Source: Podospora anserina (Eukaryota). From it: a stretch of 64,000 nt of DNA. Positions 1 through 7,648 of the stretch are shown piece by piece; within the stretch, counting starts at the first letter, position 1, and every line of letters begins with the position of its first letter. The stretch is from contig CM030337.1 of NCBI GenBank assembly GCA_017654855.1, forward strand, positions 2,852,001-2,916,000. Direction: 5' to 3'. Made by a program: the position numbers and the translations under genes. The notes beneath the pieces are model-generated. The model did no database searches and was not told where the DNA came from. It was given only the letters and a program-made list of their open reading frames with translations.

Positions 1-985
1 GACAGTATCGAAGTTTAGTATACCCTTAACTCTATATTTTAGTGGTACCGCAATATAATTAAATACTATATTTATCTTATAAACGTCTTAACCTGCTAGT
101 AGGACGCCGACAGTAATCCTGGCTAGGAATTGACCTTTCGAAACTCTAGGTGGTTCACTCGTGGATGGACCCTCTAAGAACTCATTGCTTTAGCAATTAT
201 AGAATTCTTCTCTAAAGAGGGCGAGTGTCTAAGAAATAAGAATTCTTTAGAATAATAAATCTACGATATAACCAAGATTCCCCTAGGAGCTCTCTAAAGC
301 AATATATTATCCGACTTCAGTATCGAAGAGCGTCTATCATAGGTCGGAAAGCGTAATATAATATAAAAAAAAGATAAAGCGTGCTCGCTATTCGGCATCT
401 TTAATGTGATAATGCCGCTTCTGTATAGCGAAGGAGAAGACAAAGCATTTAAACGGGTACGAAAAAAATTAGCAAGCATAATCGCGATCTGTCCAGTCTA
501 CGTTCTACCGACCCGCGCCTTGACAAGAAGCGCATCGAGGAGGCAAAGGGTGGGTTGCTTGCTGGCGCTTACCGCTGGGTTTTCGACACCCCCGACTTCT
601 ACCGTTAGCATGACCAGTCAGAGAGCCGCCTTCTATGGATTAAAGGAGATCCTGGCAAGGGCAAGACCATGTTGCTCTGCGGCATCATTAAAGAGCTTGA
701 GAGAGCCATTGTTGAAGACGGGCATTGTCGTAATTTAGCCTATTTCTTCTGCCAGGCTACCGACTCGCGCATCAATAACGCTATTGCCGTGTTACGTGGC
801 TTGATCTACCTTCTTGGTCGCCAGCAACCACATCTCTTCTCCTACATACGCAAATTTACGGACGCGGGTACATCGCTCTCTGACGCAAATACGGGGTTCG
901 CCCTCTCGGATATTTTGGAGGGGATGCTAGGAGATGCGAACTTGAAGCTAACCTACCTGGTCATCGACGCTCTGGACGAATGCAT
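1..985 (+). pseudogene. RIP-inactivated HET-NACHT (HNWD/het-e-like NLR) gene fragment, running off the window start and truncated after Walker B
   Basis: Manual translation gives HET motifs 'LNSIF*WYRN', 'SRWFTRGWTL*ELIA' and 'SLFGIFNVIMPLLYSEGE'. After a frameshift in the A-run near 462-468 come 'STDPRLDKKRIEEAKGGLL', the P-loop 'LLWIKGDPGKGKTMLLCGII', 'YFFCQATDSRINNA' and Walker B 'LVIDALDEC'. Stops arise from CAG>TAG, CAA>TAA and TGG>TAG changes in TpA-rich DNA, the RIP signature. No WD repeats follow. Confidence 0.9.
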
Positions 986-1382
986 GGGTCGAGTCGTTGT
1001 TGGTTAGATCAAGCATGTATGCGGCCCAGCTGTGGCCACCATCGGCGAAAGATATCCTCGAGTTGTTCGTCCACTGACTTGCGCTCCCATTGACCCAGAC
1101 CACAGCCTAGCCGCCGCCCAGAGTTGCAACGAACAAATGAACACAGAATGAAAAGGATAGTTCGGCTCTCACCGATATATTTCTGATCATGTTACATGTT
1201 CCTATGCCAAAGCCCTTGGACAATGTCCCCCACACTCTGCAGCCTCAACCTATTGAGGTTAGACATATTGAAAAGTAATAAGTTTTTGATAGAATACCCT
1301 GTGATTCTTCAAGACAGAAAACATGAATGTAAATAACTGATCCAAGACTCGTTATGAAATAACCAGCGGCAAATGAGTACTC

Positions 1383-3395
1383 TCACCGAAGGATGCTAGA
1401 AATGCACTCCTCGGAGACATACTGCGCTCTCACTATCCCAACTCCCACCCTTTTATATCCCCTGTCACCGTCTTCCTTCTGTACAATGATCATGTAATAA
1501 CCTTTCCTAGCGTCTTCCACCTTATGGTCTTTCATCTCCGCGTCTAGGGCACCAACAATAACACAATTACAATCCTCAAACCGGATCTGATCCGCTATGT
1601 CAAACCATAAAGACCCTACTTCTTCCTCTCCATCCAAAATAACATACTTTTCTTCGTTTTGTCCCATTCGGCAACTTCCACCAAAGTTCCTCACTTTGAC
1701 ATTTAGTACCGATCTATCATCGGCAAAATCAAGGTCTTCGAAGCGTGGGACCCGAAAACTTGGGTTTGGATCCAAGATAAACTCAATGCCCCCGGAATAT
1801 GCCATCCAAGACCATGATGGCACTTGATCATCATCATACTTGATCAGGGGTTTCTGCTCCTCGGTCCGCTTCCACAAAAGAAGAGAACCTAAACAAAAGC
1901 GGAAGATCCCGTACTTCGCTTTACTTTGCACCACCTTTTCCATCCGTTCAACAAGGCTGTGAATCGCAATGACCCTGTCTGTTTCATCGGTAAGACCGGA
2001 TGTCGAATATTTCTGGAATAAAAACTGTATGAATTCGATGGTACGATAATACCCACTCCGCCAGAGTCTATCTAGGAAGTGTGGATCGAGGATGAAGTAT
2101 TCCTTCCCAAACGGCCTAGAGCAAGATAAGACTTTGTACCATACGTAGTTTTTAATGATCAGACTTACGGTATAAGTTTTGTGAGCCGTTCACAAATCAC
2201 CCCGTCCCCACATTCGCAATACACATGTGACGTAGTAAAATGAATGGTTCGCCGGGACAGCACTCGTTCTTGTAAGACCCAAGCTCGTTGCATGAGAGGC
2301 CCTGCGTCGACGTCTTCGTCGAAATGACATTGGCAAGCTGAGGAGGCCAAGGTATTTTGTGCTCCATCATCTGAGAAGCGTGACTGGGATTTGAGAAAGC
2401 CATCTTTCCAGTTATGTGCTGAGGTTACGGCAATAGTACAGTAAGCATTAGCGAAAATATTTTGCATAGTGTTAGCTTGGCTTTTCCAGTCGCCACCATC
2501 TCCTTGAATGATACAGAGAGCATCAATCCAGAGATATTGTTTGCCAAGTGCTCGAGTAATTTGAACAGTATCCTGAAAGGTCTTCGGCAACTGCTCAAAA
2601 AAAAAGTCTTTCAAACGTCTGTTTTCCTTGGTATTGCAGAATTGGCGTTTTTCATCTTCGGTAGGATTGCCCCAACGGTGTGACAATACAAGGTAGTCTT
2701 CATCCAGAGATTGGTTCTCTACCAGAGATAATTTTTTGGGGTCAGAGTCACCAACAAAGATAATTCTCTTTGGCCAGAAGCTGCCCTTTCCTCGTTTTTG
2801 GGGACAGTCGTGATTGTTGTCACAGTGCTGAAGCCACTCGCGCAACAGGAGAAGGTTTGGAATGACTGGCATGAAATCTGATGAATGACTAGTGGGGAAA
2901 GAATTTGATGACTGTTTGCTCTGAAATGTCGAAAGAAATGGGTCTTTAGTTGTACGTCGCCATGATCGCTAAAGAAAACGCCGATTAGTGGGAAATGTAA
3001 ATTAGTCGGACGGATCCACTTACTTCCTACACCACCACACACACCGAGGTCAGTAATGATTCCCATCTCCGCTCTCTTGAGGGCATCCACTTACATACTA
3101 CACCACCACACACACCGAGGTCAGTAATGATTCCCATCTCCGCTCTCTTGAGGGCATCGACTTACTTCCTACACCACCACACACAACGAGGTCAGTAATC
3201 ACCATCAGGCTTCATCTACTAAACACACTTTTTATAACGTGGCTGTTATTTGAAATCGGACCATAGCTTTAAATTAGACACATACCGACTATACAAAGTT
3301 AGGTTTTATACTTCCAAGTGACAATTATCCCTTACCTCAAAGTCCCGATGAATCCGAACTCGTGCTGGAATTTTGGCAACAGACATTTCGGCCAT
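1383..3395 (-). CDS. HET-domain (heterokaryon incompatibility) protein, ~534 aa, 7 predicted exons including four 3-nt microexons
   Basis: Exons: 3395-3336, 3288-3286, 3168-3166, 3097-3095, 3026-3024, 2968-2169 and 2115-1383 (1605 nt, open frame). HET motifs: 'YLVLSHRWG', 'LPKTFQDTV', 'YLWIDALCIIQGD', 'MQNIFANAYCTIA', 'PLMQRAWVLQERVLSRRTIHF' and 'VPSWSWM'. A 53-nt GTAAGT..TAG intron (2116-2168) joins ORFs 2165-2872 and 1383-1943 in frame. The HET call is strong; the 5' exon structure is inferred from splice signals only. Confidence 0.85.
3014..3199. repeat. Tandem repeat, 71-bp unit x ~2.6; each unit is a 68-nt intron plus a 3-nt exon on the minus strand
   Basis: Units start at 3014, 3085 and 3156 and are nearly identical. 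The minus-strand unit reads GTAAGT...ACTGAC...GTGTAG|NNN. Confidence 0.95.
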
Positions 3396-4924
3396 GTTGC
3401 TCTGATAATGTCGTTTCTCCTTACACTCGGTTTGTGACAATGGCTAGTGATCAGGACTTGGAACAGTAGTTCAATTCAGCTGATAATCTTTAATGGCCTC
3501 GAAGTCCTTAGAGAAGAAAGTCTAGAGATACAAACAGGTTCTGAGGACGCGTATTTATCCGTCCTTTTGAAGTCCGTGCCCTAATGGCCTCAGGCAGCTG
3601 CCAAGTCCTTCCACATACCCTCTAGCCAATACCATTCCTTTGGTAGCCGCGAGGCACTTGATTTTCTGCCTTACTTCCAACCATTGGTTCTCGATTATGC
3701 AGGTAGATAGCGGTTGGGCCGTGATGCAGCTGGTTGGTTGTTTGCCGTGTGACACGGTTGCCGTTGCAATGATTGAAGACGTTTTCGATCCATGTTGCGT
3801 TGGTTTCTGCTTGGGGTCTGCCGGAAAATGTGAGCTACGACAATGCTTGCGATACGGGGCGGAGTCTCAACATAGCCATGGACTGCGTGCTAGACGAAGC
3901 TGGCGACGCTGCATGACGACGCCGGGTGATCATTTCAAACCACCCGCTGTACCTGTTAGCCGTGTTTTTGGTAGAGGTTGCTTGAATAACGATGCTTGCT
4001 GGGAAGAGGGGATGCTATTGCAACGGCAGCGACGACGAAATTTAACAGTGGCATCCTGCGCGGTTATCGCGCAGCGGTGGCTTGAAAACTGTGGTCTTGC
4101 TTTGTTTGGCTGTCGATTGTCCACGACACAGGCAACACGACACAGCTGAGACACAGAGAGGGGATCACTTGTGAGCGGGAGTGAGCTAGGTACGAAGGTA
4201 CTTAGGGATTCACGGTCTATATATACGGAGGAACTAGACAGCTCGTAGATAGTTCCGCAGTATGCAATCACAGCTTGTATTGCGGTATCTTGTGTTTACA
4301 TTGAGACATCTTGTTGTGCATTATTTAGCTGCAACGATCCAATATCTAGAAGTTCGCCCTCAACCGGTATCCCTTTCAGAGGTTCTGGACAGAGGATCGT
4401 CACAAGATGCCTCAATTCTTGAAGGACTGTATAGAATTAGAAGACGCATTGACTGGGCATTACAATGCAATACAGTTGAAGGGAATTTCACAAGCGCGAG
4501 TTCCCACACGTGCAAGGTCAAGAACCTGAAGAGCAATCTATATTCCCATCAACGCGTCGACGCGTTCCATGTCGTTTTTGATTTTCATCTCATTTCTTTT
4601 GTTTACATCCATATCCATGACGTGGTGCACCTGACGGCCAGTGCCAATTATTACCTTTCTTTTCCCCACCCGTTTTAGCTCAGGGGAAGATCCCAGATCG
4701 AAGCAACCATGACGTCGCGGGCAAAAGAACTGCCATATCAGAGAAAGTAAAAACAAAGTCAAAGTACAAAGCAATTAAACCCCAACTCCCACTCAAATAC
4801 CCCAGATATCCCAAACCCATTGCCAACATACATTTCAAATCCAACCATGATCGTAATCCATGACAGGAAAATCCTTCACTCCCTCCTCCAGCCCTTCCCG
4901 CGATTTGTCTTTGCCATGCGTCAC

Positions 4925-6413
4925 TCAAAGACATTGTGAATACCACACGCTTAACACGACACATTGATATGGAGATTCACAAACCGTCGATCCCAGGTGG
5001 TATATCCCACCACATGTTCCCCAGTGAGGCACCGGTGTGCCAGTCGGGGTTGACGAGCCCGATGTAGACTTGACAGACGCCGTCGTAGGCGATGGGACCT
5101 CTTCCGTGGAAAATTCAGTTGCTGTCGCGCTGAAAACAACAGTAGTTGTAATGGTAACGAATGCCGTTTGGCTGGATAGTAGGCTAGACAGGAGGCTAGC
5201 TAGTTGGCTGGATGATAGACTGGTTGAAATCGTTGTTTGGCTGGCTGTTTGCGTGGGCGGTAGACCGGATCCTTGACCAGACGACTGGCCATCACTCCCC
5301 AGCGCAGCCTGGATACTGTCCAAGAACCCAGTATTCCCATAAACCTGCGACATATCCCTTTGTAATCTGTTAGCTCTCATTCCCACACTTCCCCCTCATT
5401 AGAACCTACCACATCATCACCCCCCCAAAACTCTCAAACCCCTTCACGTACTCCACCACCCCCTTCAACACCTCCCCATTCACATACCCCCTCCCCGCCG
5501 CCTGACTCCCCGGCACCCCCAACAAAACCTTCACCCCCTTGTTCTTACTCTCCTCCCTAGCCCACCGATCCCACCTCTCAAAGTTGAACTGGCTCTCACC
5601 CTTCCCATCACCACCCCCAGAAGCCTTCCAACTATCAACCCCACACCAATTATTATAAAACTGCACCATCACAAAATCAAACCCCACCCCATCCATCAAC
5701 CCCCCCATCGCCGCATCAGGAAACGGGCACTGCGGCGCACCACTCATGTAAAACTTTTTCTTCCCACCATCCGCATCCATCAACCTCCTCAACTCCCCCA
5801 CAAAATCAACCATATTCACCGCCACAGCCTCCAAGTCAATATCAAACCCATCCACCACCGCATCCCCAAACGGTCTCTCCACCTTTGACCCCTCCTTCTT
5901 CGGTCCAAACATCTCCCATACCGCCCCCGCCATCTGGACCGCCTCGGCAGGGGAGGAAAAACCCCCTTCGGTGTAAGTTGCTCCCCCGATAGACAAGAGT
6001 ATAGATTTGTTGTGGGCCGTCTGGCAGGTTTGGATGTCTTCTTCGAGCTGAGGGCAGGAGAGGAGCTGGCTACCGGAGAAGAGGGTGCAATTGTCGCCCG
6101 CGTTGGCAAAGTTGATTGTCGTGGAGGGGGTCTTGATCGTGTAGAGGAAGGCGAGGGGGATGATGTTGATGGGGGTGTTGGCGCAGTAGTAGGAGAGGCG
6201 TTGCTGGCCGCCCGAGGTGAGTGAGATGGAGTTTTGGCCTGGGATTCAGATGAGTAGGAGAGAAAAGTTCGGGATGGAGGGGAGTTGGGAGAGAAACATA
6301 CCCCAGTAGACGGCGATGTTGTTTGAGGCGGTGGGGTCGAAGCCCGCGAGGACTTTGTTGGAGAGAGAAAGGATGATGCCGCAGAGGGCGAGGAGATTGT
6401 GAGATCGAAGCAT
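4925..6413 (-). CDS. Secreted GH18 (class III/subgroup B) chitinase with Ser/Thr-rich linker and C-terminal CBM1
   Basis: Signal peptide '[23 protein letters not shown]', then 'NIAVYW|GQNS', 'LLSIGGA', catalytic 'DGFDIDLE', 'VQFYNNWC' and 'FGGVMMW|DMSQ'. CBM1 is '[33 protein letters not shown]'. Introns 6239-6301 and 5358-5409. Confidence 0.93.
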
Positions 6414-7648
6414 TTTTGGTGAACAATAAGTCGAAGGTTGTGGGAATTGAAAGGTTTGAAGGTCGTGGTTGGCGCTTGTCGAGGTGAATCGTGAATTGTA
6501 AATCGCTTGCTGACGTGCCCTTTATCTTCGAAAAACTCGATAACTGCCAAAGTACCTCGAGAATTGAACTGGTTCAGGCTGCCTGCTCACTGAATCGCTC
6601 CTTCCATGTGTGGTGTTCTTACCTCACGCGATAGTCTGACATCGATACTCACCTCATCCCTGCACCTCATCCCATGTCCTTCCTCTCGGAGGCAGTAACT
6701 TGAAAACTAAAAGGGAATAAAGTCAGGGAATTTCACCCGATCTTTCATCTCAAAGTATGGTAACTCCAACAACATGGCCACTGGGTCAAATCTGCTACGT
6801 TACACACTGGCAATAACACAGTCCAAACGATTGAGCTGTTCACATCTCACAGATTACACATCTCATGTAGGATCGTCTTTTAACCTCAGCCGTGATCAAT
6901 ATCTGTGGCATATGAAGGGATTTGGTGTATCCGTGATCGGAGGATACTGGATCGAAGCCGCCTCCTGATGGCCGGTGGAACATGATAACAACGCAACATT
7001 TCATGTTCACAAGAGAGCCGCTGAAATGTTGAAATGAGCGGGGTATGAAAGGAATCGGGAGATAGTGATCGTTGCATTTCGGGATCCGAGGCTACCTTGG
7101 GTATCTTGCGGTCAGATGCCTGTTCACATGCTCTGTGTTTGGTAGTTTGAGAAGAGCCGCTTGTCTCCTGCAACGTAGGATTTCGGACCTGTGAAAGCCT
7201 TCAAAATCAGTGTTCCCGAGTCAACCGTGATCGCTGGAAGTACCTTCGTAGGGCAAGCATGTACTCTGGTTTGGATATTGGTACCCAATTCTAAAGAGGC
7301 TCCATCTGCCCATAGCCCTGGACGATCTCTGAGAAGAGCGATCGGAACCGATGATCAACATTACTGGTAAATCTCAACATTAAACAACAAAAAGCAAAAT
7401 GAAATTCGGCAGGTTGGAGTACTCCAGACCTCCCACATGACAGCCCCGGTACGTCCACACCAACATTGATACAAGTTCAAAAAAGACCACCCGTTGCTTG
7501 CCATAAGTACCCGAATTCCTGGTTCCACCGAAAAGAGTGGACTTCGATCTGTACCCATACGCAACATATTGATGAATAGCCTTGCACAAAGCTTGTTCCG
7601 TGGAGTTATTGATTTTCCCCCCTGTCTCTTGAAACTAGTCTTGATACA

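Follow-up and report, generated by a model that had tools for sequence, protein, structure and literature searches.

We identified four consecutive exons of one codon each in Pa_6_6980 (PODANS_6_6980), a HET-domain gene of Podospora anserina that lies on the minus strand of the window (the whole stretch of 64,000 nucleotides that was analysed) and hosts a 71-bp tandem repeat upstream of its HET exon. All four are spliced in, mostly together, and supply residues 21-24 (S-E-Y-E) of the protein. With four residues the locus alone is modest; it is the family that carries the interest. The gene belongs to a HET clade that appears to encode an N-terminal segment, or the linker of kinase-HET proteins, one codon per exon. 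We consider it on balance probable that the introns of these arrays act as recombination spacers, which shuffle single codons and give rise to a variable N-terminal peptide; the functional part of this reading is one that we infer. HET genes are abundant and their function is mostly unknown, and codon shuffling would be a second route to diversification beside the shuffling of WD40 repeats. What this analysis adds is RNA-type evidence from a model fungus, together with the dead cassette, long arrays that look like transcripts, and the diversity statistics.

The 90% protein cluster of Pa_6_6980 has five members, one of which, P0123, derives from a Logan contig of 1814 nt and has the sequence ...IHRDFE-S-E-Y-E-RSWRR... 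across the region of interest. Four of the 24 listed sequencing runs were examined, all as contigs: three of RNA type from three studies (X15, X17 and X20) and one of DNA type. The label 'RNA-type' is a guess supported by spliced joints, as none of the listed runs is documented to be RNA. The features of the locus, in the direction of transcription, are as follows.

3433-3720, no strand assigned: dispersed repeat outside the array, 41 genome matches, with two same-strand pairs about 6.6 kb apart
3336-3395, minus strand: exon 1, 20 codons ending in IHRDFE, from P0123, the joints and the exon model
3289-3335, minus strand: intron 1, single-copy, 47 nt; X17 and X20 both show joint 3288-3336
3286-3288, minus strand: microexon 1, TCG (Ser); left out in one contig of one run
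3169-3285, minus strand: intron 2, 117 nt, spliced as one unit; the last 31 nt correspond to the repeat intron
3229-3231, minus strand: apparently dead microexon AAA, aligned with microexon 2 of relatives and absent from the RNA contigs
3166-3168, minus strand: microexon GAA (Glu), from the repeat alignment, P0123 and the joints
3098-3165, minus strand: repeat intron copy A, 68 nt; spliced and retained forms both present in 3/3 RNA-type runs
3095-3097, minus strand: microexon TAT (Tyr), from the repeat alignment, P0123 and the joints
3027-3094, minus strand: repeat intron copy B, 68 nt, 55/68 identical (ungapped) to the array consensus of the relative L071
3024-3026, minus strand: microexon GAA (Glu), from the repeat alignment, P0123 and the joints
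2969-3023, minus strand: intron 5, 55 nt; the first 10 nt are repeat intron and the remainder is unique
2169-2968, minus strand: large exon starting with RSWRR, with the HET domain (PF06985) at about 2695-2267
2116-2168, minus strand: intron 6, 53 nt; joint in 3/3 RNA-type runs and absent from the DNA-type run
1383-2115, minus strand: last exon, encoding a C-terminal domain that is conserved in this HET subfamily and has no Pfam match

The exon model 3395-3336, 3288-3286, 3168-3166, 3097-3095, 3026-3024, 2968-2169, 2115-1383 reproduces P0123 exactly, which brings the number of live one-codon exons to four instead of three. The product has 534 amino acids, 4 of them from microexons, and all introns measure 47-117 nt. 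The public annotation omits exon 1 and every microexon and begins at an internal Met. Exon 1 carries the family motif (W/R)I(H/Y)xxF(E/Q), and the same exon is present in the complete close relatives L071, L073, L079 and L084. The Pfam match to PF06985 is strong (E about 5e-29 to 2e-28; 99.9 bits against a cut-off of 22.5) and was the only one on the full protein, with no NACHT, ankyrin or WD40. A 14-nt exon at 3242-3229 was tried and rejected: with it the HET exon would lose its frame, and neither P0123 nor the joints contain it. Direct splicing evidence comes from the joint 2968-3336, which carries 12 letters for S, E, Y and E in runs X17 and X20, and from X15, where the four joined microexons form a loose end. 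The splice sites of the repeat are thus in use, as P0123 and contigs of the three RNA-type runs testify. The DNA-type run has no joints at the introns of the gene, and there the core of the repeat reaches a depth of 180 against 71-74 in the flanks.

Tandem Repeats Finder places the repeat at 3014-3199 on the minus strand (period 71, 2.6 copies, 94% matches, score 344). It spans the 3' end of intron 2, GAA, intron 3, TAT, intron 4, GAA and the first 10 nt of intron 5. The sequence-only reading had equated the 71-bp period with a 68-nt intron plus a 3-nt exon, which both this program and the spliced joints bear out, and had rightly described the cassette as frame-neutral; its intron is in phase 0 and its exon one codon long. 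Intron makes up 96% of the unit (68/71 nt), with a GTAAGT donor, a CTGAC branch site and a TAG acceptor; no notable RNA fold was found for it (z = 0.76). At lag 71, mismatches inside the repeat occur only in the codons (3024/3026 and 3095/3097), at 3088 versus 3159 (1/68 between the two full introns) and at 3115 versus 3186 (1/31 in the upstream intron end), so the mismatch counts first given, with 2/3 codon positions, were accurate. For codon (2/3) versus intron (1/68) differences the locus alone gives a Fisher p of 0.004, a single comparison picked post hoc.

GAA, TAT and GAA, the microexons first named, are indeed spliced, but that list was incomplete: it overlooked TCG at 3288-3286 and the dead cassette at 3231-3229. 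The latter (AAA) has a donor-like GTGTGT behind it and no AG acceptor in front, and the 117-nt intron 2 can be aligned with a whole intron-microexon-intron segment in L071 and L073. Intron 2 may represent two ancestral introns (54 + 60 nt) fused across this lost cassette. The array comprises four live units and one dead unit, compared with 3-19 parsed units in its closest relatives. Judging from the 1/68 intron difference, the last copying or homogenising event at this array was recent, and Pa_6_6980 would be a short member of the family in which duplication or homogenisation of the two repeat introns is recent.

In a predicted structure based on a 139-sequence alignment (pLDDT 88.1), residues 1-18 mostly score below 50 and the block 21-30 averages 77; on this profile S-E-Y-E would sit where the low-confidence tail meets the folded body. 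A first model, at pLDDT 48.5, was unusable. A comparison of the predicted structure with the PDB gave no match at E <= 0.001. The HET domain is described in the literature as TIR-like. A supplement row of PMC3689799 lists Pa_6_6980 in the induced class 'idi' during incompatibility (2.62-fold at 1 h), and a passage of PMC10197012 counts het loci as 5/125 HET genes in P. anserina. Among literature main texts, none naming Pa_6_6980 was found.

As for the surroundings of the gene, the dispersed repeat at 3433-3720, which we take for a probable solo LTR, stops 38 nt upstream of the start codon. Given this position and its coverage by RNA-type contigs, it may supply the promoter or the 5' leader of Pa_6_6980. 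Tail to tail with the HET gene lies a broken NLR-like fragment with NACHT / NPHP3_N Pfam matches (367-1007, plus strand), adjoined by an AT-rich stretch with RIP-like dinucleotide indices (1-480). On the other side is a GH18 chitinase-like gene (4925-6420, minus strand; PF00704) with a Ser/Thr-rich linker, the cysteine-containing tail of which resembles, by eye, a carbohydrate-binding module.

One-codon exons are not confined to this gene but form part of an old and widespread type of array. The three closest HET paralogues in this genome (L003-L005) have 4-6 candidates each, located in the linker behind kinase-like frames (read by eye), and the other 26/30 HET loci examined (30 of 59 matches, with 1.5-kb flanks) have none. 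The candidate arrays lie on C1 at about 500.3-500.8 kb, C7 at about 4113.8-4114.0 kb and C6 at about 3455.1-3455.5 kb. Their introns have a mutual identity of 0.46-0.50, which is background level; being fully diverged, these arrays look frozen. L154 (C7:1923000-1931500), a kinase-HET gene of the same clade, lacks an array altogether and has its kinase end and HET domain in one 652-codon frame. Active shuffling is therefore not universal, given this gene and the background identity of the paralogue introns. Genome-wide counts of the splice pattern equalled those of reversed controls (45 vs 47, and 55 vs 51 in a second search), so single matches are uninformative and only clustering is informative; in the first search clusters occurred only at the four HET genes (10/45 matches).

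Among the best 80 of 193 related metagenome loci, strict chains of at least three one-codon exons were found in 38/80 on the sense strand and 0/80 on the antisense strand; for loci with at least 600 nt upstream, a looser detector gave 36/52 and 0/52. Removal of the duplicates L080, L118 and L135 leaves 35 arrays of 3-57 units from these best 80 loci, many of them interrupted by degenerate units or contig ends. In a midpoint-rooted FastTree phylogeny a single clade (support 0.99) takes in every array-bearing locus as well as some loci that are short or lack an array, and 24 other HET loci of this genome fall outside it. The entire organisation is found in L071, L073, L079 and L084: exon 1 is short, the first introns are unique, repeated introns follow, and the large exon begins with xSW. 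Their last intron also starts like the repeat intron. Relatives with the same array layout share only 53-61% protein identity and have up to 19 units. Between the repeat intron of Pa_6_6980 and the arrays of L071-L074, L077, L079 and L081, mean identity is 0.66-0.74; controls with shuffled interiors give 0.54-0.58, and a set of 35 unrelated intron-like strings gives 0.47 (max 0.55). By these values the repeat intron is to be regarded as homologous to the array introns of its closest relatives. In more distant arrays (L130) identity drops to the control level, and in L071 conservation of the repeat intron (0.81) is close to that of a single-copy internal intron (0.78), that is, not clearly higher in the nearest relatives. 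With the N-terminal 150 residues as query, five proteins were retrieved; that none of the 50 candidates was an orthologue from a sister species carries little weight. Some members carry lesions: L071, L073, L091, L109 and L137 have stop codons in arrays or first exons (in exon 1 for L071 and L073) and transition-rich introns. They appear to have been inactivated, as would fit RIP-like mutation acting on long arrays.

Across relatives, the arrays combine homogeneous introns with a small alphabet of very different codons in near-random order. Diversity was compared in the 13/35 arrays with at least four units flanked by introns of modal length. Mean exon diversity was 0.62 versus 0.15 for the intron interior, the exon being higher in 13/13 arrays (p = 2e-4), a figure that overstates independence since the arrays are related by descent. 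The concentration of divergence on the codon, only suggestive when first noticed at three copies, is thereby statistical across the family. Even in unit pairs with identical 50-nt flanks the codon differs in 8/10, and of 19 adjacent intron pairs with at most two mismatches across the family, 16 are followed by different codons. The codon is unlinked to variants of the flanking intron (flank mismatch is the same in same-codon and different-codon pairs, with ratios of 0.88-1.09). Transitions make up 93% of intron differences and 28% of exon differences. Synonymous redundancy is lower than expected (23 vs 36.8, p = 0.002, 23 arrays), meaning that distinct codons tend to specify distinct amino acids. 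Among the encoded residues W and F are enriched and V and C depleted, with the caveat that splice-site context could bias codon composition. Stop codons number 5/457 against 22 expected, all five in three arrays. Repeated three-codon words show a modest enrichment (12 observed, 5.1 expected), and array length and intron diversity are not significantly related (rho 0.29, p = 0.11).

L076, which lacks the internal HET intron, has within positions 1-290 of the contig about 54 codons drawn from 10 distinct triplets, compared with 40 in a control stretch; R is always CGT (16x) and E always GAA (15x). It retains one 65-nt cassette intron, which shares 86% identity with the intron of the L083 array. 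In L082 (about 170-270), some 24 codons come mainly from three triplets. Both runs are rich in R, E and Y with nearly one codon per amino acid, the contigs are transcript-like, and the runs are likely to be spliced products of long arrays. A translated repeat intron is present at the N-terminus of 11/124 homologous proteins, from Sordariales, Fusarium and Cladobotryum (Hypocreales); a looser pattern for translated introns was discarded, as it matched many long proteins as well. In P0045 of Fusarium falciforme the gene model translates nine cassette introns (residues 1-205), and the periods of 24 and 25 residues in this translation would imply both 3-nt and 6-nt exons. Used as a query, this repeat retrieved only itself among 8000 scored candidates. 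Gene callers mis-annotate HET genes with one-codon exons, and given the case of Pa_6_6980 and of the 11/124 homologues, a variable part of a large HET clade has been invisible in protein databases.

How might such arrays evolve? A unit of one phase-0 intron (about 65-69 nt) and one codon can be gained, lost or swapped without a frameshift. Recombination that begins and ends in near-identical introns, by unequal crossing-over or gene conversion, would copy, delete and reorder codons and keep the introns alike, and selection would maintain an open frame and a diverse codon alphabet. RIP acts on longer duplications. RIP-like mutation would then strike the long arrays and kill some of them, so that introns, near-identical at first, would later be peppered by transitions, and the codon alphabet would be older than these. 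The variable peptide could set the recognition or activation specificity of the HET cell-death protein, a proposal that we hold only tentatively. A shade more doubtful is the wider idea of a codon-resolution generator, by which strains, and perhaps nuclei within a mycelium, would write peptides of 3 to more than 50 residues that set HET recognition or activation. If this were true, the Podospora gene would be its smallest and a genetically tractable example. The P. anserina locus can also serve as a model for the inclusion of consecutive 3-nt exons by the spliceosome and for the effect of the peptide on HET activity. Speaking against codon shuffling are the small recognition surface that four residues provide, the indirect case for recombination, and the lack of visible variation within the species: no differing letters are listed at the locus in the four runs examined, and one full-length protein form occurs among the five cluster members, both samples being biased to near-identical holders. 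The 14 listed DNA-like runs (4 studies) contain 0.99 of the locus words, having been chosen as best holders.

The most serious competitor is a neutral by-product, in which recombination lets cassette number drift within a disordered tail that tolerates it, and the peptide serves no specific purpose. The low confidence of residues 1-18 in the structure model agrees with such a tail, array size ranges from none (L154) to 57, Pa_6_6980 tolerates a dead cassette, and the depletion of stops demonstrates frame-keeping only. Under neutrality, though, concerted evolution should homogenise the exon positions like the intron, and the exon is about four times more diverse; moreover, its differences are transversion-rich and biased to different amino acids. 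We therefore judge drift without function unlikely.

Somewhat less likely is that diversity arises at the RNA level, mainly through combinatorial skipping of microexons, as reported for the nank genes of Tuber and the micro-exon genes of schistosomes. All units are frame-neutral, and the X17 joint 3167-3335 (167 nt skipped, depth 8, intervening letters not known) fits splicing from exon 1 to the first GAA with S skipped; it occurs in 1/3 RNA-type runs only. On the other hand, the full S-E-Y-E is present in 3/3 RNA-type runs, and no joint that skips GAA, TAT or GAA is among those listed for these runs, on the understanding that contigs lose rare forms, so that skipping may still occur, above all in long arrays, and that contig depth cannot rank isoforms.

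The array could also act as a splicing brake on a toxic protein, since every short intron must be removed and any retention leads to an early stop. We regard this as very unlikely. Retention of any of introns 1-4 places a stop at codon 25-38, and forms retaining at least one of them are present in 3/3 RNA-type runs, but these contigs may be ordinary splicing intermediates, and contig depth cannot rank isoforms. A brake leaves the codon diversity unexplained, and it is compatible with codon shuffling. As a separate observation, contigs that keep intron 3098-3165 lead the joints in contig depth in two runs (X15 and X20) and rank near the top in X17. This gives no more than a hint that this copy, which differs from the other only at +7, is spliced more slowly.

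The sequence-only reading had seen intron gain by local tandem duplication, caught at an early stage. Indeed the two full introns differ at 1/68 positions, and the last event would have to be polarised by the nearest species (about 70% protein identity). The same layout and a homologous intron nevertheless recur in relatives that have up to 19 units and 53-61% protein identity; the way in which the last intron begins is likewise common to relatives, so that even the edge introns are partly shared; near-identical neighbouring introns are common (19 pairs); and the dead cassette points to loss. Early gain as the origin of the array is thus largely refuted, and as an account of Pa_6_6980 we find it highly improbable. 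Still less credible is an introner-like mobile intron inserted repeatedly at adjacent codon boundaries of ordinary coding sequence. It would explain identical introns unlinked to codon identity, but the genome search for such copies found only the three local matches of the 71-nt unit, and for the wider repeat region only itself (both counts being lower bounds), and the 10 distinct codons over 54 positions in L076, against 40 in the control, fit the copying of cassettes rather than insertion. Short tandem repeats are prone to mis-assembly, yet an assembly artefact can practically be dismissed, since in spliced RNA-type contigs the order S-E-Y-E is set by the 12 letters that separate exon 1 from the HET exon, and the DNA contigs, which come from another study, agree with two intron copies.

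Returning to codon shuffling between near-identical introns, several known systems invite comparison. Among the top matches for microexons in HET or fungal genes we found no description of microexon arrays in HET genes, and subscription papers or bioRxiv supplements may contain one; the terms 'exon' and 'splicing' are absent from a 2025 review (PMC12881547), as are 'exon', 'intron' and 'splic' from a survey of Neurospora HET genes (PMC4540973). According to excerpts of PMC4457414, introner-like elements of Dothideomycetes are near-identical spliceosomal introns with hundreds of copies in unrelated genes; the likeness lies in the near-identity, whereas the intron of Pa_6_6980 was found only in tandem inside one gene. 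The micro-exon genes of Schistosoma, as summarised in part of PMC10526429, encode secreted proteins from exons of 3-81 bp separated by introns of up to 5 kb. They share with the present case very short exons (from 3 bp) that can be varied in frame, and differ from its uniform one-codon exons, homogeneous 65-69-nt introns and intracellular cell-death domain.

Within the same species, the WD40 arrays of the hnwd genes (het-d, het-e, het-r) undergo concerted evolution with frame-safe deletion, duplication and reordering, are unstable and act in incompatibility, as set out in the abstract of PMC2873952. The parallel with them, which the sequence-only reading had drawn, is reasonable in the sense of 'works like': both concern a HET-domain gene with a tandem repeat of conserved units that vary at a few coding positions. 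It does not extend to domain architecture, as Pa_6_6980 has no HET-NACHT-WD40 organisation. In hnwd each unit codes for an entire WD40 repeat of an NLR, whereas the unit here is 68/71 nt intron and adds one residue; instability and an incompatibility role have been demonstrated for hnwd and are at most presumed for Pa_6_6980. The closest known system appears to be the codon-sized microexons of the nank (NACHT-ankyrin) genes of Tuber melanosporum (Iotti et al., 2012), for which passages of citing papers (PMC3689799, PMC4986451, PMC10197012, PMC13449251) report extensive alternative splicing. As far as these passages go, both are runs of 3-bp exons in a fungal family of non-self-recognition or cell death, proposed to diversify a protein. 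The Tuber genes are NACHT-ankyrin and of another lineage, while those of Podospora are HET or kinase-HET, with neither NACHT nor ankyrin. Diversity in nank, as described there, comes from alternative splicing; in the Podospora array, inclusion looks mostly constitutive and the variation would reside in DNA arrays with homogenised introns.
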